DNA of 64,000 nucleotides from assembly GCA_049512315.1 (NCBI GenBank), contig JBEKXF010000002.1, positions 1 to 64,000 on the forward strand, written 5' to 3'. The number at the start of each line of letters is the position of its first letter. The stretch's first letter is position 1. The stretch is from Candidatus Aminicenantales bacterium (lineage in GTDB: Bacteria; Acidobacteriota; Aminicenantia; Aminicenantales; Saccharicenantaceae). Made by a program: the position numbers and the translations under genes. The notes beneath the pieces were generated by a model, which saw only the letters and a program-made list of their open reading frames with translations, searched no databases and had not been told where the DNA came from. Below, one piece after another: positions 10,146 through 52,046 of this stretch.

Positions 10146-12137
10146 ATGATGAGATCTAAAGCCAAGCAGAGGGTCGCAAGAAACAAATTATCAGTTGTTT
10201 CACTATTCTCAGGAGCCGGAGGTTTAGATCTGGGTTTTATTCAAGCAGGTCATGAAGTAGTTTGGGCAGTAGATAATGACATAGACAGCGCAGGTACTTA
10301 CGAGAAGAACATAGGCAATCACATTATTTGTGAGAATATTGAAAAAATTAGATCGGCAGAAATACCGACTGCCGATGTAATCATCGCCGGACTTCCCTGC
10401 CAAGGGTTTTCTGTCGCGAACAAGTTCCGTTCAGGAGGAGATGGAAGGAACAATCTCTATCAAGAAATGCTGCGGATTATACGCGACAAACAGCCAAAAT
10501 GGTTTGTTGCAGAAAACGTAAGGGGAATCCTAAACCTCGACAATGGTAATTTCTTTATCAAGATTGTCGACGCCTTTAAGAGTGCAGGTTACCAAATTAG
10601 CCATAGAATTGTTAACATGGCAGATTACGGAGTGCCTCAAACTCGCATAAGAGTGATTATTATCGGAACTAGGAACGACATTGCACACATAAGAGTAGAT
10701 TTTCCAGCTCAAACACATTCAAAAGACGGCAAGAATCATATCAAATGGAAATCAATAAGTGAGGCGCTAAGGGAACTTCGCGATTTAAGGCCCACACTAA
10801 ATTTGGATGGTTCAAGATACGGAGTTTCATATAGAGATTATTCGGGGCATAGAAAAACCGACGGTTCCAAACCTAGCCCGACAATAACTGCACGGGGAGA
10901 TGGGGGAGGCGGCGTAAACGCTGTGCCTCATCCTAATGGCAAACGCAGGTTGAATGTCCGTGAATCCGCATGGATGCAGACCTTCCCTTGTGACTTTGAA
11001 TTTGTAGGCTCAACTAATTCTGCCTATAGGCAAATAGGCAATGCCGTGCCAGTGAAGTATTCTTATCTGTTAGCAAAACAGTTCAAGACGGCGTTGAAAA
11101 GGGATGCAATAAAAGCGAAGTCCGGCAACAAGATCGGACTCCAGCCCAAGGTCGTTTCATTATTTTCTGGAGCGGGGGGAATGGACCTGGGATTTAAACA
11201 AGCAGGATTTGATATAGTCTGGGCAAATGATAATTTTAAGGATGCAACAGAGACATATAAGAAAAATCTTGGCAACATCATCCCAAGCGATATTAAAGAT
11301 ATCAAAGTAAAAGAAATTCCTGATGCCGACATAGTGATTGGGGGCTTCCCGTGTCAGGGTTTTTCGATAGCCAATATGAATAGACACTTAGATGACAGCA
11401 GAAACTTGATGTATAGGAAGTTTGTAGAGATTGTCAATAAGAAACAACCCCAATATTTCTTGGCAGAAAATGTAAAAGGAATTCTAAACCTTGCTAAAGG
11501 TGCCATTTTTAGGTGCATATTAAACGATTTCACAAACGCCGGCTATAACTGTTCGTACGCGCTGTTAAATGCGGCTGATTATGGAGTGCCACAAATCAGA
11601 GAAAGGGTCTTTATCTTGGGCATAAGGTCTGACCTTAATCCTCTGATTGATTTCCCCCCGCGTCCAACACACGCTAACAGGCACATATCTGTCGGAGAAG
11701 CCCTAGAAAACATTCCAGAGCCAGATGAAGAACACATACTAAAGAACCATGAATATTCGAGATTTAAGTTAAAGTTCAATGGTTATATCTGCCATAGGTT
11801 TACGGATCCAAAGAAGCCGTCGCCAACTTTTACAGCCCGTGGGGATGGAAAAGGCGGCGCGATGGTTATGCATCACCCATCGAATAAACGAAGACTATCA
11901 TGCAGGGAAGCAGCATGTATTCAAGGTTTTCCACTTGATTATGAGTTTTGTGGAACAATGACTTCTGTTTATAGACAAATAGGTAATGCTGTGCCTCCTC
12001 CCCTGGCTAGGGCAGTAGCGGAGAGGATCTATAAGCATATCATGACTAATCGAAAAGGACTTGGAACCCAATCCGAAAAGAATCGAGGAGCTACTTCCGG
12101 GAAAGACAGTCAGCAATTGTCTTTAGAGTTTCACTAA
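10146..12137 (+). CDS. DNA (cytosine-5)-methyltransferase with two complete tandem MTase domains
   Basis: FSGAGG, PCQGFS, ENV, QxRxR, RQIGNAVP motifs each present twice. Confidence 0.95.
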   Translation: MMRSKAKQRVARNKLSVVSLFSGAGGLDLGFIQAGHEVVWAVDNDIDSAGTYEKNIGNHIICENIEKIRSAEIPTADVIIAGLPCQGFSVANKFRSGGDGRNNLYQEMLRIIRDKQPKWFVAENVRGILNLDNGNFFIKIVDAFKSAGYQISHRIVNMADYGVPQTRIRVIIIGTRNDIAHIRVDFPAQTHSKDGKNHIKWKSISEALRELRDLRPTLNLDGSRYGVSYRDYSGHRKTDGSKPSPTITARGDGGGGVNAVPHPNGKRRLNVRESAWMQTFPCDFEFVGSTNSAYRQIGNAVPVKYSYLLAKQFKTALKRDAIKAKSGNKIGLQPKVVSLFSGAGGMDLGFKQAGFDIVWANDNFKDATETYKKNLGNIIPSDIKDIKVKEIPDADIVIGGFPCQGFSIANMNRHLDDSRNLMYRKFVEIVNKKQPQYFLAENVKGILNLAKGAIFRCILNDFTNAGYNCSYALLNAADYGVPQIRERVFILGIRSDLNPLIDFPPRPTHANRHISVGEALENIPEPDEEHILKNHEYSRFKLKFNGYICHRFTDPKKPSPTFTARGDGKGGAMVMHHPSNKRRLSCREAACIQGFPLDYEFCGTMTSVYRQIGNAVPPPLARAVAERIYKHIMTNRKGLGTQSEKNRGATSGKDSQQLSLEFH

Positions 12138-13188
12138 TTGATAATTTGTTTGTTGCTGCGTAAGTTTTTATTTCATTAGCAAGTTTGCCCAGTTCAAATT
12201 TCTCAGGGTAAGCCCAGGGGCTCGTTGCCCAATCATAACCATGAGGAATTCTTTTACAGAACTCTCGCTTTTGTTGATTGCAGAAGCGGCACAAGGCCAT
12301 TAGTTTTTGCTTATAGTTTTGTTCTGTCAAGCTATCTGCTTGGAAGATGACAGGAATTCTGTGGTCAGGCGCCAGGTCATATTCTGGATAAACAAAGTGG
12401 CAAATCTGGCATGTATAATTATGCTGCTTATATAGTTCATTCCTCCAGCGTTGCGATATATTTGTACGTTGAACTTGTGAACTTAGGTTTTGTTCTCTTT
12501 TCAATAGTTGATACATTTGCTGTTGAGAACCCTGAACATTCTTCCGAAATACTTTCATCCCGGCCTCTTCGCCCTGGCGAGGCCAACCTTCGTTTCTGAG
12601 TACATCTGCGGTTTTGCTTGGATCGCCGTAGTGCCTTTTTATGGTCGAATCACTGAACTTAAAGGGGATGGCTAGTTGCGGCCGCAGATTATTCGGGATA
12701 TTAATTTCCAAGACGTTTCGCCCGTGCGGTTTTAGGTCATACAAAACGCAGAGGACTGCAATGGTTCTTGCTTTAGAAAGGAATTTATATTTTAGATACT
12801 TATCTCCGTCACCTATCTCAAAAACTATGAACTTAGAACTTCCGTACGGAGAGGGCTCGCCTTGCCTTATTCCGCGCAACGCCTCGTTTAACTCTGGGCC
12901 GTATCGATCGGCCGCAATTTGACTGCCAGAAGAAATAGTCCCCGTAAAATCCGTTGTTGAGTTCCTTCGCCATTGAATGGACCTTGGCCAGCCTTTTATA
13001 TGGCAATTAAGCCTAGGGCGGAGTCTCCAAAAAGAATTTGAATCTGGAGCCAAAGAATGCAATAGACGCGAGTGGAATTCCATTCTGGCAAAATCATCGG
13101 CACAGGCTTTTTTAGTTATTTTCACCAATATTGTTGAATCGGTTATTTCAAGAGAGACAAAATCGCCAACAAATTTATTAGCAGACAT
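12091..13188 (-). CDS. HNH endonuclease, probable cognate restriction enzyme
   Basis: CQIC...PDHRIP...LCRFCNQQKR; lies between the MTase and vsr. Confidence 0.75.
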   Translation of the reverse strand: MSANKFVGDFVSLEITDSTILVKITKKACADDFARMEFHSRLLHSLAPDSNSFWRLRPRLNCHIKGWPRSIQWRRNSTTDFTGTISSGSQIAADRYGPELNEALRGIRQGEPSPYGSSKFIVFEIGDGDKYLKYKFLSKARTIAVLCVLYDLKPHGRNVLEINIPNNLRPQLAIPFKFSDSTIKRHYGDPSKTADVLRNEGWPRQGEEAGMKVFRKNVQGSQQQMYQLLKREQNLSSQVQRTNISQRWRNELYKQHNYTCQICHFVYPEYDLAPDHRIPVIFQADSLTEQNYKQKLMALCRFCNQQKREFCKRIPHGYDWATSPWAYPEKFELGKLANEIKTYAATNKLSISETLKTIADCLSRK

Positions 13189-14047: not shown

Positions 14048-14821
14048 ATGACAGCCTATCGAAAATTAAGGGCCGAACTACTAAAACGCCTTAAATGTTC
14101 GCCTCAGGCCCTTTCTCAAAGGATCTCCACGATCAGGAAACACATTGGGCCGTTTTCTACCAAAGAGGGTGTTTATATAGTCGCCCATGAACAAGGATTG
14201 GATTTGTCAAAATATATTGGCCAAGAAACAATGGCCCAAGTTCGCGCCATCCTCAGCCGCAAAACTCATAGCCCAGCTCCTCCTCCAATACCTATTAGGC
14301 GATCCAAAAAAACAGCCCTAATTAAACTCAACAATGAGTTGCCAAGGGTTGACGCGCTGCTGTCAACTTCCCTGGTTGAAGACGCGAGAAAAATGTCTGG
14401 AATATACCCTACGTATTACGTCCTGGAAAACTCACTTCGAGTGGTAATAATAAGAATTCTTGAAAGAAAATATGGGTCCGATTGGTGGGAGAAGAAAGTT
14501 CCGGTTGACCCAAAAAGAAATGTCGCCTCTAGAAAAAGCGAAGAGGATAAAAAACCTTGGACAGGCAAACGCGGGCAGCATGAGATTTTTTATTCCGATT
14601 TTAAAGACTTAAAGAGCATAATCAGGGCAAATGCAGCGGATTTTAAGCCTATTTTTATGGACCTAGAATGGATCGCCCAAAAGCTTACTGAATTGGAAAA
14701 TCCCAGGAATATTGTCGCGCATCATAACCCCCTCGATAAGAACGACATAAAAAGAATAGAGGTCTTTTTTGCCGATTGGATTAAATTGCTAGGTAAGAAA
14801 AAGCAGTTGATTCCAGCTTAG
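14048..14821 (+). CDS. Swt1-like HEPN domain protein
   Basis: LENSLR..YGSDWW, YSDFKDL, RNIVAH (RxxxxH). Confidence 0.8.
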   Translation: MTAYRKLRAELLKRLKCSPQALSQRISTIRKHIGPFSTKEGVYIVAHEQGLDLSKYIGQETMAQVRAILSRKTHSPAPPPIPIRRSKKTALIKLNNELPRVDALLSTSLVEDARKMSGIYPTYYVLENSLRVVIIRILERKYGSDWWEKKVPVDPKRNVASRKSEEDKKPWTGKRGQHEIFYSDFKDLKSIIRANAADFKPIFMDLEWIAQKLTELENPRNIVAHHNPLDKNDIKRIEVFFADWIKLLGKKKQLIPA

Positions 14822-21521: not shown

Positions 21522-23132
21522 ATGGCCCAGTGCCAGGCGCTCCGTGTTGACGGCCGCCCCTGCGGCATGAAGGCCCTCCGGGGCGAGCCGTTCTGCGTCC
21601 GCCACAGCGAGAAGACCAGCCCTAGGGACATTATCGAAGCCATGTTCGACAGGCGGGCCTTCGGGAAGCAGTTCCACGACCCGGCGACGTGGTCGAACTG
21701 GGTCGTGTGCCTAAAGACGATCTATGGCCTTCAACTGACGTCCCAAGAACTTGAAATCTTCAGAGCCTGCACCGGAAGGGCCCATCCTCGGCCAGGGGGC
21801 TACGAGGAGGTTTTCATCATCGCCGGGAGGCAGGGCGGGAAGTCAACGACCATGGGCTTCGTGGCCGCATACGAGGCGGCCCTGGGCGGCTGGGAGAAGA
21901 AGGTCGGCCCGGGCGAGCAATGGAACATCTTCTGCCTGGCCGACACGAGGGAGCAGGCGGGCATCGTCTTCGGCAACATCAAGCGGTTCCTTAAACCCTT
22001 CCAGAGGCTCGTCAGGCGCGAGACGAACGACGAGCTCGACCTCGTCAACGGGGCTCACATCGCCGTCAAGGCGTCGGACTTCAGGTCGGTCAGGGGCTGG
22101 CGGCTGGCCCTGGTCGTCCTCGACGAAGTGGGGTTCTTCCCCAATGACAACGTCGACGAGCTCGTCTCGGCGCTGACGCCCTCGATCATCCCCGGCGGCC
22201 GGCTGATAGGCATCTCCAGCCCGAACAGGAAGGCGGGTTCGCTCTGGGCCCTATACGAAAAGTTTTGGGGGCGGGACGACGCCGACACGCTCGTCTTCAA
22301 GGCACCGACTAAGCTCCTAAACCCGACTTTCTCGGACAGGAAGATCGCCCGGGACATGGAACGGGACCCAGAGAGGTGCAGGGCAGAGTACGAGGCCGAG
22401 TTCCGAGATGACACAGGAGCGCTCTTCGACGGGGAGAAGCTAAAGGCCGCGGCGACAGGAAAGGAAAGGCCGGCCGAGAAGGGCGTGAGATACCAGGCTT
22501 TCATCGACGCCTCCGCGGGCAAGAACGATAGCATGACGCTGGCCATTGCCCACGCCTTTGAGGAAACGGTCTATCTCGACTTGGTCCGCGAAAATGCGCC
22601 GCCCTTTGACTTCGTCAAAGTTGTCGAAGGATATGCAGACCTCTTGCGAGAATATAGCATCCATGAATGCTGGGGCGACAGGTATGCGTTCGCCTCGCTC
22701 GAGAGCCAGCTCAGGTGGCACAGGATCGCCCTGAACCAGAGCAAGGCCAATGCCACCGAATTCTATCTGAAGTTGAAAGCGCTCCTCCAGGCAGGGGCCG
22801 TGGTCCTCTTGGATGACAAGAAGCTGACCGACCAACTGAAGCGGCTCGAGCTCCAGACGCTGCCCAGCGGGGCCGAGAGGATCGACCACCCGAAGAACGC
22901 CAACGACGACGTGGCCTCGGCTGCGGCCGGGGCGATCTACCATGTGTGCAAGGGGATGGCGTCCAGGCAGCCCACGCCTGGAATCGTCGTCCAAAGGCAC
23001 GAGCACCCAGACCTGCAGCGCGAAAAGGAGCTGGCGGCAAAGGAAGGGTTGGAGAACTGCGAAAAAGAGATGATGGACTACATCAACGAAACTGAAGGGG
23101 GGCTCAGCATTCCAGTCAAGCCTGGGCGCTAA
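21522..23132 (+). CDS. Terminase large subunit-like ATPase/nuclease with N-terminal Cys/His finger
   Basis: AGRQGGKST Walker A, VVLDE Walker B, ISSP, EYEAEF, FIDASAG..DS and DHP..NDD nuclease acids. Confidence 0.8.
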   Translation: MAQCQALRVDGRPCGMKALRGEPFCVRHSEKTSPRDIIEAMFDRRAFGKQFHDPATWSNWVVCLKTIYGLQLTSQELEIFRACTGRAHPRPGGYEEVFIIAGRQGGKSTTMGFVAAYEAALGGWEKKVGPGEQWNIFCLADTREQAGIVFGNIKRFLKPFQRLVRRETNDELDLVNGAHIAVKASDFRSVRGWRLALVVLDEVGFFPNDNVDELVSALTPSIIPGGRLIGISSPNRKAGSLWALYEKFWGRDDADTLVFKAPTKLLNPTFSDRKIARDMERDPERCRAEYEAEFRDDTGALFDGEKLKAAATGKERPAEKGVRYQAFIDASAGKNDSMTLAIAHAFEETVYLDLVRENAPPFDFVKVVEGYADLLREYSIHECWGDRYAFASLESQLRWHRIALNQSKANATEFYLKLKALLQAGAVVLLDDKKLTDQLKRLELQTLPSGAERIDHPKNANDDVASAAAGAIYHVCKGMASRQPTPGIVVQRHEHPDLQREKELAAKEGLENCEKEMMDYINETEGGLSIPVKPGR

Positions 23133-27339: not shown

Positions 27340-27487
27340 CCCCTCCCCGAAACCCCGATAGCCTACGATCCCAGTAGGATTAGTGTTTTCCGCATTCCGC
27401 CCGTTATCTGCGGCTTGCTGACGGACATTCTTGTGTGCTTTCCGGGACCGGTCTGAGATCGTCTACATCGTCCTCTGGAAGGCTGGC

Positions 27488-27679
27488 CGGCTGCCCAAAA
27501 GCAAGCAGGCCGCCCGCGTCGCCGCCAAGCATCCGGTGACCCTCGACAAGCGCTTCATCCACGCCAGGCCGGAGCGGAAGGAGGAGGACTAGGTCCGCAC
27601 AGCCCCATTGGTCATTAAGCCCCGCCTGGAAGGCGAGGCTTTTCTTATGTTCTTAGTTCGATTTATTGAGGGCAGGTCA
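27488..27679 (+). repeat. Dispersed repeat copy 1 (peptide remnant + terminator + IS3-like end)
   Basis: Encodes RLPKSKQAARVAAKHPVTLDKRFIHARPERKEED*; hairpin 27617-27643; ends gagggcaggtca. Confidence 0.9.
27617..27643 (+). terminator. Intrinsic terminator in repeat copy 1
   Basis: aagccccgcc-tggaa-ggcgaggctttt. Confidence 0.65.
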
Positions 27680-28450: not shown

Positions 28451-28584
28451 TGACTTTCCCCGCTCAACGTATCACCTCTGAAGTGAGATCTTCGAGCACC
28501 CGCGCCGAGCGCGTCGCGGCCAAGCACCCCGTGACGCTGGACAAGCGCTTCGTCCACCCCAGGCCGGAGCGGAAGGGAAAGTGA
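28451..28584 (+). repeat. Dispersed repeat copy 2 (IS3-like end + peptide remnant)
   Basis: tgactttccccgctcaacgtatcacc... then AERVAAKHPVTLDKRFVHPRPERKGK*. Confidence 0.9.
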
Positions 28585-28658: not shown

Positions 28659-29678
28659 TCATCCGTCGCGGTCGAACCATCCCTTCGATAATAGGCATAC
28701 AACGCAGAACTTACCCCCCGGCGTCACCTCCGTTAAATCGTCCTTGTACGTGATGGTTCCGCACCCATCGCAGATCCTGTTGTCAATGCCGATAAGCTCA
28801 GCGTCAGTGAGAGCGAGATCCGCAATGATCCGGGGGTTCGTCCGGCAGTACAAGCAGAGGAAGAGACCCGGCCTTACCTCGGTCAATTCTCCCTCCCAAT
28901 ACAATTTTTCACACCCGTCGCACTCCGCGATCTCGCTCGGGTTCCGCTCTTCGCGGATGATCGGGGCGTCGACTCGCTGCTCTGCCTCCGTCGGCGGGTC
29001 AACGGGCTGCTCCTTGGGGTCGAACGTGCGCTCTGGCGCTGCCTCCTTTTGCTCCTTAGCTTCGAGCGCACGCTCCGATGCTGGATCTTTGCCTGCCTGG
29101 CCCATCCCATTACGCTGCGTCCCAGGCTGGCTCTCAGTTCTCTTGTTGGTGAAAATGACCTCACCCCTGGTTGATTCGTTTTGGCTTGTGACAATCGCGC
29201 CAGGGACCCTTTCCCTGAATATTCGAGGCACGCCGTCTCTCACCCTATTGAGTCTCATCTGGCGGTTGCGCCGATCGACTTCCGATTCGCTCTCCCCAGT
29301 CGCCCAAAGCCCGTCCATGACTTTCCGCAGTTCAAATCCGATGGTATCAACAAGCTCAACACTGCGCCCGTCAACCAGCAGAACGTTTGAACCGAATATT
29401 TTGGCGCACGGCAGATGGGCCAACTCCCAAAGCGTCTGCAGCTCCTCTACTGATTGGCCCTTGGTGACCCGGCCAAGGATCTCCGGATCTTTATAACGGT
29501 CAAAACTGATGTAAAGGGAAAAACCCTTCTCGCCGTTCTCGAATGTGAATGTCACTCCCCCCGGACATCCGTAGCGGCGCCTGAAGGGTCCGGCCTCGAG
29601 GTCTTTTTCGACGAGCTCGTCATCATCAAAAAGTACGTACAGAAGGTTCTTTGACCTATGCAGGGAGATTTCCATCAT
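28659..29678 (-). CDS. Hypothetical protein with two C-terminal zinc-ribbon repeats
   Basis: CDGCEKLYWEGELTEVRPGLFLCLYC and CDGCGTITYKDDLTEVTPGGKFCVVC. Confidence 0.65.
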   Translation of the reverse strand: MMEISLHRSKNLLYVLFDDDELVEKDLEAGPFRRRYGCPGGVTFTFENGEKGFSLYISFDRYKDPEILGRVTKGQSVEELQTLWELAHLPCAKIFGSNVLLVDGRSVELVDTIGFELRKVMDGLWATGESESEVDRRNRQMRLNRVRDGVPRIFRERVPGAIVTSQNESTRGEVIFTNKRTESQPGTQRNGMGQAGKDPASERALEAKEQKEAAPERTFDPKEQPVDPPTEAEQRVDAPIIREERNPSEIAECDGCEKLYWEGELTEVRPGLFLCLYCRTNPRIIADLALTDAELIGIDNRICDGCGTITYKDDLTEVTPGGKFCVVCLLSKGWFDRDG

Positions 29679-29839
29679 CGCACCGCCTTTCTCTGTTCCC
29701 GAGGTCATTTAAGCACAGATTCCCAAGGGCGCGTCAACTTATTTCGCCGCATTCAATTCCATCTCCCCGGAAAGCTCCCTTTGCATTCTGGAATTGCCCA
29801 AGTGAAACTGATTCCATTCCCGCCCCAGAGAGGTTGTCC

Positions 29840-30562
29840 TCAATTGCGTCCATTCCAAGTGGAAGCGTGTGCTCGGAACTTGGCGAAAGTCTTATTGCCG
29901 CAACAGACGTCGCCGAAGAAATCGGCCCGCATCTTTTCAAGGGCCCTCTCTCCCGCGTCATTGGCGGCCGACCCGGGGTGCAGCACCCTGGCCGTCTCGT
30001 TCCTTCGTTCCTGGTCTATCATCTTGTTGACCTTCTTCAAGTCGCCCGCAAAATCCGGGGTTTTAATAGGGGTGCTCAGATGTTCCGCTATCCATCTCAA
30101 CTCCTCAGATTCTTTCTCATACCCTATCCATTGCCAACTGCAGAGATTGGCCCATTTTTCCCTGGCGATGGGGAGCATGTATTTTTCGGTCGCGCCTGTC
30201 TCTTTCTTCGCGCTTTCCGGCAGGGACTTCCACTCGGGCCACTCCCTCGTGTCGACATAGAAAAAGGTCCCGCGCGAGTCTGTGGAAAGGATGAACCAGT
30301 TGACGCAACAGGCGTACGTGAGTTTCGCACACCACGCTGCCCGGTTCTTTCTCTTGGTCTCGACGTATCTTGCCCAGCCCGCCTTCACTATGGGCTTATG
30401 CTTTGAGCAGTACCCGGCACGGCTTCCCCAATACAACCGGCCGCAGTCGTGAAACCGACAATTATTGAGCGACTTGCCTCCGGACGAGAAGTATCTGTTG
30501 CAGATTCCTACCAACCAAAGCCCGACTTTGCCGTGCTTCTTCCTACTGTAGATCATGCTCAT
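29840..30562 (-). CDS. Cys/Trp-rich hypothetical protein
   Basis: 240-aa ORF co-oriented between two unknown genes; CRFHDC..YCSKH. Confidence 0.55.
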   Translation of the reverse strand: MSMIYSRKKHGKVGLWLVGICNRYFSSGGKSLNNCRFHDCGRLYWGSRAGYCSKHKPIVKAGWARYVETKRKNRAAWCAKLTYACCVNWFILSTDSRGTFFYVDTREWPEWKSLPESAKKETGATEKYMLPIAREKWANLCSWQWIGYEKESEELRWIAEHLSTPIKTPDFAGDLKKVNKMIDQERRNETARVLHPGSAANDAGERALEKMRADFFGDVCCGNKTFAKFRAHASTWNGRN

Positions 30563-30651
30563 GTCAGGACGCTTTCACCGCATTCGCGACCGCGGGCACG
30601 GGGCAGGCGATGACGGCCGGGGACTCGTTGCTTCCAGAACAACGGCTGTTT

Positions 30652-32166
30652 TCATTGGCGCTCTTTATCACGGGATTTCGCCTCCTTCTCCGAATAGACG
30701 GAATTCGTTGTCTCCACCAGGTCCCTGGGAATAATGGCCCAAAGTTTCCATTCGCTATCGGCCAGAACTTCCCAGCCTTCAGAAACCGGCATGCCGGTGA
30801 TGCTCTCTCCTTTGCGATAACGTTTTCCGTTCTCGGCGACGATGTCGACCTTCGGCTTCAGCCGCCAGCCCGTGTAAACCAATTTTAAGACGCGACTCAT
30901 CGGCAGCTCATCGGGCCACTTCGCGCACGTAACCCTTATCTCCGGCGGGGTCGCATTTACGGCCCGGCTACTGTTGAACCAGCGAGCACGGGTCCCCGCT
31001 TTAACCATGCTGTCCGGAATGATCATCGAAGGCGTGACGTCGACCTTGACTATGTTGCTGTTATCGTCGCCGGTTCTTTCGCGGGTGCGCCAAGTGTCTT
31101 CTATAAACTCCGAATACTCGGCTCCGACCTTCCATCCCGTGTCGACGCGACTGCCGACAATGAACTTCCCGGCCGGAATGAACTTTCCATGTCTGAGGGG
31201 AACATTGACCTTACACTCCAGCCATTGCAAGTCATCGAGTTTACGGAACGGTTCTTCAACTTCCACCGCGCTGTCCGGGATAAGGAGCGAGTGTTGGTCG
31301 CCCACAAGGTCGATTATCCAGCCTTCCGACACCGGAAAACCCAGACCGCGTGTTCCAGCTCCATAGCCAAGACCGGGCGAAAATTCAATGGCTGTTTTGA
31401 GCGTTATCCAACATGCGGTCTCCAATCGACCGGAAGTCTCTTCCCGCTTTGGGATCTTTTTCACGGGCAGTCCCAAGGGCTTTATCGCCTCGACCACTTC
31501 AAGGGGGACAATGGTGGAATAGCCATCATCAAACTCTACACGCCAGCCAACCCCACGCCCATCCCAGAGAATAGCCCACAAACTCGGGCTGGGCCCCGGA
31601 CGACCTAGAACAACAGTCCCGGCTGGGACAACCATTCCCGCTTTAATCGTGATGTCGTACTTGAACTTCAGCCATCGCACGCCATCGTCCTTTGGCTTCT
31701 TCTCGACGGTCACATGTTGCTCCTTAAGTTCACGAGTCATGACACCCTTCTCAACTGCTTCATGGATCACGGGGTTGAAGGAAACAGGACCTGCATTTGG
31801 GTACTGGCTCAGTATCCGGGATCGAATTTCCAGAAATTCTTCCCGGGTCCCCTTGAAAAGGTAGCAAGTCCCTTTACAGTCGGGACACTCTTTCCACGTT
31901 CGTCCCTCATCAACATCCAAGACGCCGCGACCCTTACAGGTTCGGCAAGTCTCTGTTCGACGGCCGATCAACTCGTGGACCAACTGGCAGTGCGGGCCCA
32001 TGGGCTGAAAGCCCGTCCGCCTTAGGTAAGCACTCATCCATTCGATCGTGCCCAGATGCCACCCATCGTACTCACCAGGTTGTCCACAATTCCTACAATT
32101 GGGAGTCCCCATGCCAACGACATGGGGAGAACACTTACAACGCGGACGCCACATTTTCCCGGGCAT
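30652..32166 (-). CDS. Hypothetical protein: N-terminal zinc fingers plus four beta-rich repeats
   Basis: AAGGAGG RBS; CRNC, CRTCKGRG..CPDCKG; repeats of W..K..I....G....G....G.P...GW. Confidence 0.75.
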   Translation of the reverse strand: MPGKMWRPRCKCSPHVVGMGTPNCRNCGQPGEYDGWHLGTIEWMSAYLRRTGFQPMGPHCQLVHELIGRRTETCRTCKGRGVLDVDEGRTWKECPDCKGTCYLFKGTREEFLEIRSRILSQYPNAGPVSFNPVIHEAVEKGVMTRELKEQHVTVEKKPKDDGVRWLKFKYDITIKAGMVVPAGTVVLGRPGPSPSLWAILWDGRGVGWRVEFDDGYSTIVPLEVVEAIKPLGLPVKKIPKREETSGRLETACWITLKTAIEFSPGLGYGAGTRGLGFPVSEGWIIDLVGDQHSLLIPDSAVEVEEPFRKLDDLQWLECKVNVPLRHGKFIPAGKFIVGSRVDTGWKVGAEYSEFIEDTWRTRERTGDDNSNIVKVDVTPSMIIPDSMVKAGTRARWFNSSRAVNATPPEIRVTCAKWPDELPMSRVLKLVYTGWRLKPKVDIVAENGKRYRKGESITGMPVSEGWEVLADSEWKLWAIIPRDLVETTNSVYSEKEAKSRDKERQ

Positions 32167-32237
32167 GACTGTAACCTCCTTATCAGCGTCAGGAGGCCGG
32201 GTATCTGAGGGGAGCGGAAAGCGGATTGGCGGGCAAC

Positions 32238-32271
32238 AAAAAACCCGCTTCTCCTGGCTCAGGAGAGCGGG
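32238..32271 (-). terminator. Riboswitch expression-platform terminator
   Basis: Minus strand cccgctctcctg-agc-caggagaagcggg-tttttt. Confidence 0.85.
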
Positions 32272-32281
32272 TCATATCGCC

Positions 32282-32393
32282 CGGACACTTTGTTGCCGCT
32301 TTCTCAGCGACCGCATCCTCGCTCCGTGCGAGTGGCACCTTGGGTGTCCGTCCCAGGTTGCCGGGCCCTGCATTAGAGGGCCTCTCCTGATGC
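32282..32393 (-). ncRNA. SAM-I/IV-type riboswitch
   Basis: P1 gcatc/gatgc, AGGAGA, P2 ggccct/agggcc, CGGCAACC..AGGTGCC P3, P4 ctcgc/gcgag, P5 gtcgct/agcggc, pseudoknot cggacac/gtgtccg. Confidence 0.88.
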
Positions 32394-32400
32394 CGAATAT

Positions 32401-32429
32401 AATATAAGCTCTGGGACCCGGAAAATCAA
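32401..32429 (-). promoter_or_regulatory. Sigma70-type promoter of the riboswitch leader
   Basis: TTGATT-17 bp-TATATT, 7 nt upstream of P1. Confidence 0.7.
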
Positions 32430-32640: not shown

Positions 32641-32809
32641 CGCCCGCCCAAGAACGAGCGCGTCGCCGCCAAGCACCCCGCGACGCTGGATCGGCGGTTC
32701 ATCCACCCCGGGCCGGAGAAGAGGGAGGAGTAGGGCGGCCGGTCTATAAGCCCCGTTGGAAGGCGGGGCTTTTTTATATTCTCAGTTCGATTAATTCGGG
32801 GACAGGTCT
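32641..32809 (+). repeat. Dispersed repeat copy 3 (peptide remnant + terminator + IS3-like end)
   Basis: RPPKNERVAAKHPATLDRRFIHPGPEKREE*; hairpin 32748-32775; ends ggggacaggtct. Confidence 0.9.
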
Positions 32810-35388: not shown

Positions 35389-35478
35389 TGACCCCCCCCT
35401 TGAATCTTAAGCGGCTCAGACTTCATGTAGTCGCGGCGCTCGACAAGCGCTTCATCCACCCCAGGCCGGAGCGGAAAA
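35389..35478 (+). repeat. Dispersed repeat copy 4 (truncated)
   Basis: tgacccccccc start; core encodes LDKRFIHPRPERK. Confidence 0.8.
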
Positions 35479-37175: not shown

Positions 37176-37360
37176 TGACCTACCCCCGCTCAATTTATCA
37201 CCCCTGGATTGAGATTTTCAAGCAAGTACGCCGAGCGCCTCGCTGCGAAACACCCCATGACGCTGGACAAGCGCTTCATCCACCCGAGGCAGGAGCGGAA
37301 GGAGGACTAGGCAAGTCGGGACCGTCGGACGCCAAGCCCCATTGTTTAGGTGGGGCTTTT
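37176..37360 (+). repeat. Dispersed repeat copy 5 (IS3-like end + peptide remnant + terminator)
   Basis: tgacctacccccgctcaatttatcacc..; SKYAERLAAKHPMTLDKRFIHPRQERKED*; hairpin 37334-37360. Confidence 0.9.
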
Positions 37361-41986: not shown

Positions 41987-42154
41987 ATGAAAAGGAAGGA
42001 CTTATTCAAGTCGCCGGACCCGAAGGCCGACTACAAGAAACTCATCAACGCCGCTAAGGCGGACCTCGAAGAAGCGATGGAACGGGCAGTCGAGCTCGAC
42101 AATCTCGCTGATCTGGCCAGAGCCCTGGGGAAGGCCGAATGGAGCAAGAAATGA
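41987..42154 (+). CDS. Small hypothetical protein coupled to the recombinase
   Basis: ATGA overlap with the recombinase start at 42151. Confidence 0.5.
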   Translation: MKRKDLFKSPDPKADYKKLINAAKADLEEAMERAVELDNLADLARALGKAEWSKK

Positions 42155-43680
42155 CCGGCGTCATCTGGGTCAGGGTCTCGTCGGTCGAGCAGGCCCGCGG
42201 CTATTCCCCCGACGCCCAACTCAGGGCGCTCAGGGAGGCCGCCAAGCAGAGGTCCATCGACATCGTCAGGGAATTCAAGGTCGCCGAGTCTGCAAAGACC
42301 TCGGAGACGAGGAGGAGGTTCCGCGAGCTGGTCGACTTCATCGGCGAGCACAAGCCCGATTACCTGATCGCCCTAGCCATCGACCGCATAACGCGGAACC
42401 CCGACGACCTCTACGCCATCCACAACCTAATCGACAGGGGCGGCCTCAGCGTTCTACTGGTGAACCAGAACAAAGTCATCAACAGGGACTCCCCTCCCGT
42501 GGACAAGTTCACCTTCATGATGTTCGGGAACATCGCCTACCTCGACAATATGCAGAGGGGTGAGCGGGTGAAAATGGGGATGCTGGAGAAGGCCCGAGGC
42601 GGCGTCTTTCCGTCCCGGGTCCCGGTCGGCTACATGAACGTTCCCGACCCCACGGATCCGTCAAGCAGACGGCCGACGGTCGCTATCGATCCCGCAAGGG
42701 GCCCGCTGATCAGGCTGGCCTTCGAACTCTACGCCCGGGGCGGCCATTCCCTGGCGACCCTCCGCGACGAGCTCAACCGCCGCGGCCTGCGGCAGAGGCC
42801 CACGTCGAAGAACCCGAACGCACCGATAAGCATCTACGGCCTCCAGGTCATCCTCGGCAACCCCTTCTACTACGGCATGGTGAGGTGGGGCAAGCAGGTG
42901 TTCCCGGGCACGCACGAACCGCTGATCTCGGCGGACCTGTTCAACCGGGTCCAGGCCCGCCTCAGGGAGAACTGCAGCTACGCCAAGCCGGCCGCGAAGA
43001 AGCATTTCGCCTTCAAGCCCTTCCTGAGGTGCGGGCACTGCCAGGCCGGTATAACGGCCGAGGAGAAGGAGGGGGCGCACAAGAGCGGCACGTACGTCTA
43101 CTACCACTGCACCCACTCCAAGGACAGGAACTGTCCCCTGGGCATGTTCCGCGAGGAAAAGGTCGACGGGATGTTCGCCGAGGCCCTGGGGAAGCTCTAC
43201 ATCGACGGGGCCATCGCCGGCAAGATCAAGGAGCAGCTGAAATCGGCCCACGGCGAGCAGGAAGGGGCCGACAAGAGGGAGCTGAGGAGGCTCCAGTCGG
43301 AATACACGCGGAAGACGAACCAGCTCGGCCTAATCTACGACGACCGGCTGGACGGCACCATCACGAAGGAGCAGTACAAGGAGAAGCAGGCGGCCCTGGA
43401 GCGGGAGCTGGGGGCGATCCAGGCCGACATCGATAAGCTGGGCAGCGTCAACAGGAAATACAAGGAGGAGGGATCGATCGTCATCGACCTCCTCAGCGGC
43501 TTCAAGGACATCTACCAGGCGGCCGACCTCGAGGGCAAGGCCGCCATCCTCGGCGCGGTCGTCGACAGCGCCAGCCTGAGGGGCGACGACCTCTTCGTTT
43601 CCTGGAAGCAGCCCTTCGACATCCTGTTCACGCTCGGGGAGGGGGAAAGGGTTCTAAGAAAAACAAAATGGCGTGCCTAA
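42151..43680 (+). CDS. Large serine recombinase (integrase)
   Basis: RVSSVEQ (Ser), DRITRN, recombinase domain NPFYYG..HEPLIS, zinc ribbon CGHC..YYHC, coiled coil. Confidence 0.95.
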   Translation: MTGVIWVRVSSVEQARGYSPDAQLRALREAAKQRSIDIVREFKVAESAKTSETRRRFRELVDFIGEHKPDYLIALAIDRITRNPDDLYAIHNLIDRGGLSVLLVNQNKVINRDSPPVDKFTFMMFGNIAYLDNMQRGERVKMGMLEKARGGVFPSRVPVGYMNVPDPTDPSSRRPTVAIDPARGPLIRLAFELYARGGHSLATLRDELNRRGLRQRPTSKNPNAPISIYGLQVILGNPFYYGMVRWGKQVFPGTHEPLISADLFNRVQARLRENCSYAKPAAKKHFAFKPFLRCGHCQAGITAEEKEGAHKSGTYVYYHCTHSKDRNCPLGMFREEKVDGMFAEALGKLYIDGAIAGKIKEQLKSAHGEQEGADKRELRRLQSEYTRKTNQLGLIYDDRLDGTITKEQYKEKQAALERELGAIQADIDKLGSVNRKYKEEGSIVIDLLSGFKDIYQAADLEGKAAILGAVVDSASLRGDDLFVSWKQPFDILFTLGEGERVLRKTKWRA

Positions 43681-43720
43681 GAGGATTCGAACCTCCGACC
43701 TTTGGATCCGGAGTCCAATG
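43669..43720 (-). pseudogene. tRNA-Arg(CCG) 3' two-thirds (att site)
   Basis: Anticodon arm ttgga-ctCCGga-tccaa, T arm ggttcgaatcc, CCA end; D arm and 5' acceptor strand missing. Confidence 0.85.
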
Positions 43721-43864
43721 GTCTATATGCTTGAAAAGGTATCGCAAATTTCTGAGCAGGTTATCTTCTTCGTTATCCTTGAATGGGGGTAACGGGTCAG
43801 TTGGCCAGGCAGGGCTCGCTTAGGGTCCATCTAAAGGGCCTGGATAAGCAGGCAGACCACTCCG

Positions 43865-44066: not shown

Positions 44067-44143
<77 letters not shown>

Positions 44144-51655: not shown

Positions 51656-52046
51656 AACGGCCGGAGTCGGACGTAAGCCGAATTCTGTTCCCGCCGAAGC
51701 GGGGGCGGTTATTTGTCTAGGCCCCGGATTGCTCCGGGGCGCGAGCGGCCTACCCACCCCCTGGGACGGGCCATCCCAAAGTGGGGTTCGTTTGGCCTTG
51801 CTCCGGATGGGGTTTGCCGTGCCCCTGATGTCGCCATCAGGGCGGTGAGCTCTTGCCTCGCCATTTCACCCTTGCTCCCCGGGGAGGCTGCGCCTGCCCT
51901 GGAGGGCGGTGTCATTTCTGTGGCACTTTCCCCCGGTCGCCCGGAGTCGCCGTTAGCGACCATCCTGCCCTTTGGAGTTCGGACTTTCCTCTCCTCCTTG
52001 TCCCTCGCGGGAAGGAGCGGCAACCGCCTCGCCGACTCCGGCCGTT
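51656..52046 (-). ncRNA. rnpB: RNase P RNA (type A)
   Basis: GAGGAAAGTCC, GTGCCACAGAAA, ACAGAATTCGGCTTA; 15-bp terminal P1 helix. Confidence 0.96.

Follow-up and report, generated by a model that had tools for sequence, protein, structure and literature searches.

SAM riboswitches are textbook regulators of methionine and S-adenosylmethionine (SAM) enzymes, and the classical SAM-I (S-box) terminator riboswitches of Bacillota work as OFF switches through the competition of P1, an antiterminator and an intrinsic terminator. The SAM-I/IV class has been known since the report of Weinberg et al. 2010 (PMC2864571). Riboswitches are described as rarely found in phages (McCown et al. 2017, PMC5473149); the cases on record include c-di-GMP-I riboswitches in C. 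difficile prophages and glutamine riboswitches in cyanophages and pelagiphages (PMC5473149, PMC9004378), one of the latter on the Melnitz phage (PMC9004378). Here we analyze a stretch of 64,000 nucleotides (nt) from a Candidatus Aminicenantales bacterium (contig JBEKXF010000002.1), called the window below, in which a SAM-I/IV riboswitch on the minus strand precedes three genes for Cys-rich proteins of 504, 240 and 349 amino acids (aa). In a full-text literature search, with subscription journals outside its coverage, no paper was found on SAM riboswitches on mobile elements or before such genes.

The result of this study is that a SAM riboswitch is conserved before several unrelated and uncharacterised protein families on horizontally moving DNA, and therefore marks these families as tied to the SAM pool. 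There are at least five of them, namely the 349-aa family, the family of the N-terminal domain of the 504-aa protein (504-N), the 240-aa family and two cargo families of contig C17 of the same genome, to which a set of MoxR, VWA and MetK genes is added. We think it somewhat probable that the system is a SAM-OFF riboswitch on accessory or mobile cargo which answers SAM shortage. Such a system offers a simple experimental handle, with one ligand and one terminator, and should its cargo turn out to secure SAM supply as a back-up, or to act as a defence set off by SAM loss, the competition for SAM among phages, mobile elements and their hosts would gain a further level.

The leader RNA and its probable ligand

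A cmscan of the whole window against Rfam gave four matches above the gathering score, one of which is SAM-I/IV (RF01725); it covers model positions 1-99 of 99 with 55.9 bits against a gathering score of 41.1 (E 1.7e-06 for the 64-kb window). The elements of the leader are as follows.

32401-32429, minus strand: sigma-70-like promoter, from consensus only, with TTGATT (32429-32424), a 17-nt spacer and TATATT (32406-32401), 9 of 12 consensus matches
32279-32398, minus strand: SAM-I/IV riboswitch aptamer, P1-P5 and a pseudoknot of the P3 loop with 32288-32282
32382-32390, minus strand: antiterminator 5' strand UCAGGAGAG, made of the end of the P1 5' strand, J1/2 and the start of P2
32238-32272, minus strand: intrinsic terminator, 13-bp stem with one bulge, 3-nt loop and U6, -21.5 kcal/mol
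32175-32181, minus strand: Shine-Dalgarno sequence AAGGAGG, 8 nt before the ATG of the 504-aa gene

The promoter-like site ends 3 nt ahead of the aptamer start given by Rfam. An earlier note, made from the letters of this DNA alone, had proposed a promoter, a full P1-P5 aptamer with a 7-bp pseudoknot and a terminator opposed by an antiterminator, and had named Infernal with the Rfam models as the way to check the aptamer. Both the promoter scan and the full-length match above the gathering score agree with that proposal. The pseudoknot joins CGGACAC of the P3 loop with GUGUCCG (32288-32282), and here the proposal stands in part: the helix exists and six of its pairs are well kept, but the seventh and outermost pair is weak and forms in 10 of the 17 related leaders described below, the seven pairs together being paired in 90.8% of cells, with changes on both sides at three pairs.

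The terminator reads ACCCGCUCUCCUG-AGC-CAGGAGAAGCGGGU followed by U6 (32272-32238). It has one bulged A in the stem and was missed by a simple terminator consensus scan; the hairpin was read by eye and then folded. In its 5' arm lies CUCUCCUGA (32267-32259), of which UCAGGAGAG (32390-32382) is the exact complement. Folding of the full leader gives aptamer and terminator as the minimum free energy (MFE) structure at -86.4 kcal/mol, and the enforced antiterminator reaches -80.5 kcal/mol, a cost of about 6 kcal/mol; when the leader is folded only to the terminator loop, which mimics ongoing transcription, the antiterminator becomes the MFE structure. The same complementarity extends over 9-12 nt in most of the related leaders where our script found a simple terminator, a compensatory change is seen in locus L010 (GAGCG/CGCUC, against GAGAG/CUCUC elsewhere), and the stem sequence of the window terminator recurs in the host metK leader as well as in other cargo leaders. 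Exact 9-nt complementarity, folding, and a conserved and covarying pairing thus all bear out the opposed pair of hairpins. Further downstream, a CCUCC box (32196-32192, minus strand) lies 11 nt upstream of AAGGAGG, with similar boxes in related leaders, and could sequester this Shine-Dalgarno sequence by pairing; in a 251-nt fold the region from the box to the Shine-Dalgarno sequence (32196-32175) pairs with the aptamer 5' segment.

Selection on the RNA was assessed with 17 leaders which do not precede metK, that is, the window leader, three more of the same genome, and relatives and metagenome copies. For the 36 pairs of P1-P5 and the pseudoknot, 97.2% of cells are paired and 11 pairs change on both sides; none of 500 shuffles reaches the observed pairing or number of both-side changes, figures which overstate independence because the 17 leaders are related, and controls with partners slid by 1-3 columns pair in 33-41% of cells. 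Judged by these counts, the aptamer structure appears clearly to be maintained across the cargo leaders.

Regarding the ligand, a 29-nt core of the aptamer (GGCAACCUGGGACGGACACCCAAGGUGCC) recurs unchanged in at least 118 genomes of Acidobacteriota and Actinomycetota. Eighty loci with flanks were examined, in which a crude rule gave the first downstream open reading frame (ORF) in 65 cases; a Pfam family at E <= 1e-12 was assigned to 34 of these, and all 34 are methionine or SAM enzymes, made up of 11 MetH-type proteins, 17 Abhydrolase_1 proteins, which we infer to be MetX-like, five Cys/Met pyridoxal phosphate (PLP) enzymes and one MetK. The other 31 ORFs have no family, and many of them are probably wrong-frame ORFs in high-GC DNA. 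Because the core is identical to cores ahead of methionine and SAM genes in other phyla, the ligand is very probably SAM, and the variant aptamer with another ligand that was raised in the earlier note finds no support. We regard it as highly likely that this RNA senses SAM and, like the host metK leader, acts as an OFF switch. With a terminator/antiterminator platform like that of the metK leader, the genes should therefore be ON when SAM is low, and the same statement in the earlier note holds as a prediction from the SAM-I/IV class and the shared design.

A second type of SAM-I/IV leader was also observed, 113 nt long, on contigs C17 and C36 of the source genome (L001 1501-1640 and L002 1501-1640 being these two copies) and in genome G018 (L006). 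Its U-run follows directly after the pseudoknot 3' strand (..AAAUGUCCAUUUUUU) and it is without a separate terminator hairpin; the part of the terminator stem might be played by P5 or by the pseudoknot once the ligand stabilises it. In genome G009, a fluoride riboswitch (L034 3714-3777, plus strand; 56.2 bits against a gathering score of 34) stands divergently about 290 nt from a cargo-type SAM-I/IV switch.

The cargo genes and their sister operons

The three window genes, in their order from the leader, are the following.

30652-32166, minus strand: gene 1, 504 aa, an N-terminal zinc-finger domain of about 126 aa, then four beta-rich repeats
29840-30562, minus strand: gene 2, 240 aa, a Cys/His-rich N-terminus and a conserved core (..FYVDTREWPEW..EKYMLPIAREKW..), no family
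28659-29708, minus strand: gene 3, 349 aa, an alpha/beta N-domain, a disordered linker and two CxxC...CxxC zinc ribbons

The likely true start of gene 3 is M11 at 29678, where its homologues begin. The family of this gene carries the link with the riboswitch. In metagenomes 15 loci encode a relative of the 349-aa protein, one of them (L044) being the window's own DNA, and Rfam places a SAM-I/IV switch upstream on the same strand in 10 of the 15, or 9 of the 14 others. At the five loci without a switch the contig ends 186-1912 nt upstream of the 349-like gene, and in four of them that space holds genes of the MoxR-VWA-MetK operon type; after clustering at 90% identity, six of 10 clusters have the switch and four are not assessable. 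Among 339 species-representative genomes of the class the family occurs in seven, and the switch accompanies it in G000, G003, G009 and G228, while a weak partial homologue in G125 stands on a contig of 1852 nt, too short to judge. The genomes of the same genus are without the family apart from a degraded copy in G003. From these sequences, the link between riboswitch and 349-aa gene is conserved and the family is sporadic, as expected of accessory genes.

The search for the family was extended to viruses and other collections. Profile searches with the 349-aa alignment gave no match in a genome-contig collection or in IMG/VR viral contigs, tblastn against GenBank phages gave none for the 349-aa protein or the 504-N domain, and the exact 32-nt aptamer core was not found in IMG/VR viral contigs; the absence of the 349-aa family from IMG/VR and GenBank phages says nothing either way on a defence role.

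Between leader and 349-like gene four layouts were found, in all of which the 349-like gene is the one common gene.

Layout A (G009, L053-57; degraded in G003): a 275-aa protein of the 504-N domain family before the 349-like gene
Layout B (L045, L047, L048; by gene order also L046, L050, L051, L052): a MoxR-type AAA+ ATPase, a DUF2201 VWA-like protein and a MetK-like protein of 371-392 aa before the 349-like gene
Layout C (L058): a 240-like protein before the 349-like gene
Layout D (the window): the 504-aa and 240-aa proteins before the 349-aa gene

A MetK-like gene thus stands directly ahead of the 349-aa homologue in seven loci. Its product has the three S-AdoMet synthetase domains of Pfam in all three copies scanned, is 28% identical to the host MetK, and keeps the motifs GHPDK, D..D, PD.K, QH, NP.G, GD.G.TGRK..VD.YG and GGG..SGK in six aligned copies. 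For this pair of neighbours in L048, a complex prediction that combined the N-domain of the 349-like protein with two MetK-like copies gave no answer (score 0.00) and is evidence neither for nor against a contact. Since sister operons carry a second SAM synthetase, the SAM link is probably metabolic in origin.

The leaders point the same way as to relationship. That of the window is 89% identical to the leader of L045, a layout B operon, 76-84% to those of G009, G003, own-genome C17b and L054, 71-72% to those of L053 and L056, and 69% to the metK leader of its own genome. In a tree of leaders, eight chromosomal metK leaders form a clade (100/100) apart from all cargo leaders and the window leader pairs with L045 (92/97), and the idea that it is a direct copy of the host metK leader was rejected on this ground. 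On the simplest reading, these sequences would represent a mobile operon for SAM synthetase that carries a riboswitch of its own, with an exchange, in either direction, of the genes that precede the 349-aa gene. The earlier note had considered that homologues might be without the riboswitch, which would then stand before these genes by chance after the loss of a met gene. One half of that scenario fits, for no SAM synthetase is present in the window copy and one is present in the sister operons; the other half does not, since the riboswitch is kept by homologues, in the metagenome loci counted above as well as in G003, G009 and G228, against a chance juxtaposition.

As to the proteins themselves, none of the three window proteins has a family above cut-off in Pfam, NCBIfam, PHROGs or PADLOC. 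No methionine or SAM gene was recognised among them by Pfam and NCBIfam, and S-AdoMet_synt domains and MetK catalytic motifs are absent from all three (Pfam), in line with the description in the earlier note of three Cys-rich genes without methionine or sulfur enzyme motifs. All three ORFs are intact. The 504-aa protein has two CXXCXGXG motifs in residues 72-103, a resemblance limited to CRTCKGRG and CPDCKGTC, and the DnaJ-type zinc finger (DnaJ_CXXCXGXG, PF00684) reaches only 16.0 bits against a gathering score of 32.7. An exhaustive HMMER search with the 504-aa protein gave 334 cluster representatives at E <= 0.001, nearly all of them small proteins matching only residues 1-126; among 46 members of this 504-N family, eight match the DnaJ zinc finger and five Anti-TRAP, all weakly, and a few match PHROGs lacking an assigned function. 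The family was not found in 400 other genomes of the phylum (E <= 1e-8, six candidates scored per genome). The repeats of the 504-aa protein look SH3-like in the ESM Atlas's own low-confidence model, with structure rows at a template modelling score (TM) <= 0.28, and the Atlas feature matches of 0.76-0.77 for this protein serve as leads only.

For the 349-aa protein, with 34 homologues, the AlphaFold (AF2) model has a mean predicted local distance difference test (pLDDT) score of 73 and of 80-94 in the N-terminal alpha/beta domain. Against the PDB, Foldseek gave no match at E <= 0.001 and the best VIA-align Z of 4.5 is within noise, which does not establish a new fold for the modelled protein; the ESM Atlas gave no usable match for residues 1-165. 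The 240-aa protein has seven homologues, and its AF2 model (pLDDT 51) is too poor for a structure search. Two natural fusions are informative here, P0002 joining a 349-like protein with repeats of the 504-aa protein and P0007 joining a 349-like protein with a 240-like domain, and therefore the three gene products very likely work together. That the three genes make up one operon and one functional unit is, in our estimate, likely.

Genomic setting and competing explanations

SAM-I/IV switches before genes other than metK are frequent in the source genome, where four of five precede genes lacking a known function. In a sample of 41 genomes with 24 SAM-I/IV matches, nine precede genes of this kind, the four of the source genome included, 14 precede metK directly and one does so with one gene between, metK being recognised by its N-terminal motif, with confirmation by Pfam only for L029. 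Many cargo units are followed by an island backbone, consisting of a conserved junction of about 200 nt, a small serine recombinase (resolvase), an AAA_25 or DnaG-type primase gene and a tyrosine integrase with HTH_17, which we found in contig C17 of the same genome, G003, L049, L050 and L053-57; the integrase abuts tRNA-SeC in C17 and G003.

At the window operon this backbone of resolvase, primase and integrase at tRNA-SeC is not present, and the 3' side of the 349-aa gene shows a dispersed repeat and then a signal peptidase gene in opposite orientation. The surrounding 20-kb stretch, at 20-40 kb of the window, has no synteny in the seven other genomes of the genus, of which only G003 matches a part, and the neighbours include a type II restriction-modification (R-M) pair, a HEPN protein, an integrase fragment, a multi-copy terminase-like element and a large serine recombinase near tRNA-Met. 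The earlier note's mobile island is accordingly right for this non-syntenic stretch amid recombinase, R-M and terminase-like genes, but the operon itself is not next to a recombinase. That note had also suggested that the genes possibly serve as a sensor of phage-driven SAM depletion which backs up the island's methyltransferase system. The R-M pair at 10146-13188 is the only methyltransferase system in the window, and because it lies 16 kb from the operon and does not travel with the module, such a link has no support. Other features of the neighbourhood are listed here.

10146-13188: C-5 cytosine methyltransferase (663 aa, two matched stretches) converging on a type II restriction-enzyme-like gene
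14048-14821: Swt1-like HEPN protein, PADLOC candidate PDC-M34B
28495-28576, plus strand: dispersed repeat copy (BLAST) just downstream of gene 3
32644-32771, plus strand: dispersed repeat copy upstream of the promoter, with its own terminator hairpin at 32748-32771
27480-27600, 28504-28576, 32659-32771, 35439-35476 and 37220-37306, all plus strand: copies of the dispersed repeat in the window

Two copies of the repeat thus bracket the riboswitch operon. BLAST finds 24 copies in the genome, clustered on few contigs; its parts are those of a small Lys-rich gene (about 120 aa, full-length copies on C61 and C67), namely leader, last 30-45 codons (..AAKHPVTLDRRFIHPRPERKEE*) and terminator hairpin, and the short copies look like internal-deletion derivatives, resembling miniature inverted-repeat transposable elements (MITE-like). 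Integron-like attC sites were considered for these flanking repeats and rejected in favour of remnants of the small gene's 3' end and terminator. The segment 20187-23200, with a terminase-like ORF (21522-23132), has five further copies in the genome at 84-87% identity (C5, C72, C50, C59, C43) and is a multi-copy element. A weak partial tRNA-like match (43672-43732, minus strand, 31.5 bits) overlaps the 3' end of the large serine recombinase gene (42139-43680, plus strand) 340 nt from the intact tRNA-Met (44067-44143, minus strand), and may be an attachment-site remnant. The window also holds a bacterial class A RNase P RNA (51659-52039, minus strand, 268.6 bits).

The other SAM-I/IV copies of the genome deserve a description of their own. 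Contig C17 (L030; C17:42377-43663) has two tandem units of switch and cargo 1.1 kb apart, with cargo families of their own, followed by resolvase, AAA_25 protein and a tyrosine integrase abutting tRNA-SeC (L030 16495-16589), the whole making up a compact, roughly 7-kb island. C36 has a fourth copy, which stands beside DUF1156 and SNF2-helicase genes and an integrase. A small family with the pattern FPYL.TY.V.SFYH.ILLP, which also forms the core of the C17b cargo, is found in G022 (L029 10124-11852) with a SAM-I/IV switch on one side and the chromosomal metK on the other, and in G013 (L028 8759-9496) ahead of a PARG-like macro-domain gene.

On these grounds we propose the following mechanism. 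With SAM bound, P1 and the pseudoknot would hold, the terminator at 32272-32238 would form and transcription would halt ahead of the genes. With little SAM, the aptamer 5' segment would pair with the terminator 5' arm and RNA polymerase would enter the three-gene operon (504, 240 and 349 aa), whose zinc-finger products would act as one unit belonging to a family of shuffled cargo modules. These modules have a patchy distribution among uncultured Aminicenantes-like bacteria, and many of them lie on small islands with a resolvase and an integrase. The module would most likely be an accessory response to SAM shortage, probably built round a mobile SAM-synthetase operon, and in the window copy other partners of the 349-aa protein would have replaced the synthetase part. 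If so, a role of the cargo in the SAM pool or with SAM synthetase is plausible because of the repeated adjacency to a MetK-like gene, though we place it somewhat short of an even chance.

Several observations weigh against this explanation. The window copy has neither a SAM synthetase nor a recombinase alongside and could represent a rearranged form or one in decay; the copy in G003 shows clear degradation, its ORFs being split; and no riboswitch was found in the 6-10 kb searched upstream of the weak partial 349-aa homologues of G130 and G131. Intergenic gaps of 89 and about 130-160 nt could house internal promoters, and no family, fold or defence model assigns a function to the proteins. In a search of sequencing runs, the three that contain the DNA in full are peat metagenomes, two of them possibly its source, and there is no RNA run among those listed.

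A rival view is that the riboswitch is a relic of a mobile SAM-synthetase operon, whose synthetase has been lost so that unrelated genes now lie behind the leader under a SAM control without adaptive meaning. The close identity of the window leader with that of the L045 operon, the window copy's lack of an island backbone and its bracketing by dispersed repeats, and the decay in G003 would all fit. We nevertheless consider it improbable: three layouts without synthetase (504N-like with 349; 240-like with 349; 504 and 240 with 349) still have, in several lineages, an intact terminator and an intact aptamer that scores above threshold, the 349-aa gene comes under the switch in every layout, fusions connect it with both other window genes, and the window ORFs are all intact. 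The islands suggest another possibility, in which the riboswitch lets an island read host SAM as a proxy of growth or starvation, and its resolvase or integrase is controlled by the zinc-finger proteins, acting as regulators or directionality factors. Zinc ribbons are a frequent feature of DNA-binding proteins, a same-strand resolvase comes after the cargo across the conserved junction in own C17, G003, L049, L050 and L053-57, and a chain of small overlapping ORFs leads from cargo into resolvase in L049 and L050. However, no resolvase follows the 349-aa gene in the window, L047, L048 or G228, the cargo varies and includes the enzyme set of MoxR, VWA and MetK, the junction could carry the resolvase's own promoter, and own C17b has the same backbone with a cargo lacking the 349-aa domain, which makes control of the island's life cycle quite unlikely.

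An immune role has more to recommend it, and we still judge it rather unlikely. Phage SAM lyase acts against bacteriophage exclusion (BREX) and R-M systems, and low SAM could be the sign of such a lyase or of an attack on SAM-dependent restriction or BREX, with the cargo, induced through the riboswitch, as a defence or abortive-infection effector or, in the sister operons, as a back-up SAM synthetase. MoxR-vWA pairs occur in conflict systems, the accessory region of the window holds the R-M pair and the HEPN protein PDC-M34B, and elsewhere GmrSD, Z1 and DUF4420 genes surround a cargo-type leader in G018, a DUF1156 protein and an SNF2 helicase lie on own contig C36, and an AbiEi/AbiEii pair lies downstream in L047. 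Yet each locus has different defence neighbours, at distances of kilobases, the cargo showed no toxin-like domain, and no evidence of SAM lyase or phage was found for these hosts. PADLOC-DB 2.0 (2023 library) assigned no family to the three window proteins or to the MetK-like, VWA and 349-like proteins of L048, the sole cargo match being a weak P-loop match of the MoxR protein. A broader version, that small mobile islands recruited SAM riboswitches as an alarm of SAM depletion (for example by phage SAM lyases disarming restriction) which opens a variable cargo slot, is likewise one we hold to be doubtful, and so is its corollary that the slot contains either a back-up SAM synthetase with MoxR/VWA helpers or zinc-finger effectors built on the new 349-aa family; if true, mobile DNA would carry a sensor for immunity or homeostasis that is made of RNA. 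The explanation which we prefer remains a SAM-OFF switch on accessory cargo that answers SAM shortage.

Comparison with known systems

The closest relatives are the host metK leader on contig C13 and its kin, which belong to the same family RF01725, with both copies above the gathering score, and have the same helices and pseudoknot as well as the same terminator design, with the stem sequence ACCCGCUCUCCUG..GGAG.AGCGGGU and a U-run. In contrast to them, the window leader precedes genes which are not methionine or SAM enzymes, falls outside the metK-leader clade (100/100) and has a shorter P5, so that it spans 120 nt against 129 nt. With the classical SAM-I switches the window RNA shares the OFF logic of competing structures and a ligand-binding core of the same clan (CL00012). 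It differs in its SAM-I/IV fold with a pseudoknot, in its regulon, and in its antiterminator, which is formed with the 5' side of P1, J1/2 and P2 in place of the P1 3' strand and reaches across the whole aptamer.

Like the riboswitches of phages and prophages, it is a metabolite switch on horizontally moving DNA that controls non-housekeeping genes, but its ligand class is another one and its carriers, which have no IMG/VR or GenBank phage match, are small integrative islands or accessory regions. Among proteins, the 504-aa product resembles the DnaJ zinc finger (PF00684) and Anti-TRAP (PF15777) in its two CXXCXGXG motifs, with scores far below the curated cut-offs, and departs from them by an extra N-terminal Cys cluster, a conserved DGWH motif and the lack of a J-domain and of a chaperone context.

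MoxR AAA+/VWA pairs are otherwise known as maturation factors of the CoxD/CoxE type and from MoxR-vWA conflict systems. The pair is absent from the window, and the literature search mentioned above found no description of its pairing with a divergent SAM synthetase and a SAM riboswitch. In the sister operons L045, L047 and L048 an AAA_5/AAA_3 MoxR-like ATPase is encoded and then a DUF2201 VWA-like protein, as in the known pairs, and to this arrangement the sister operons add the divergent SAM synthetase and the SAM riboswitch.

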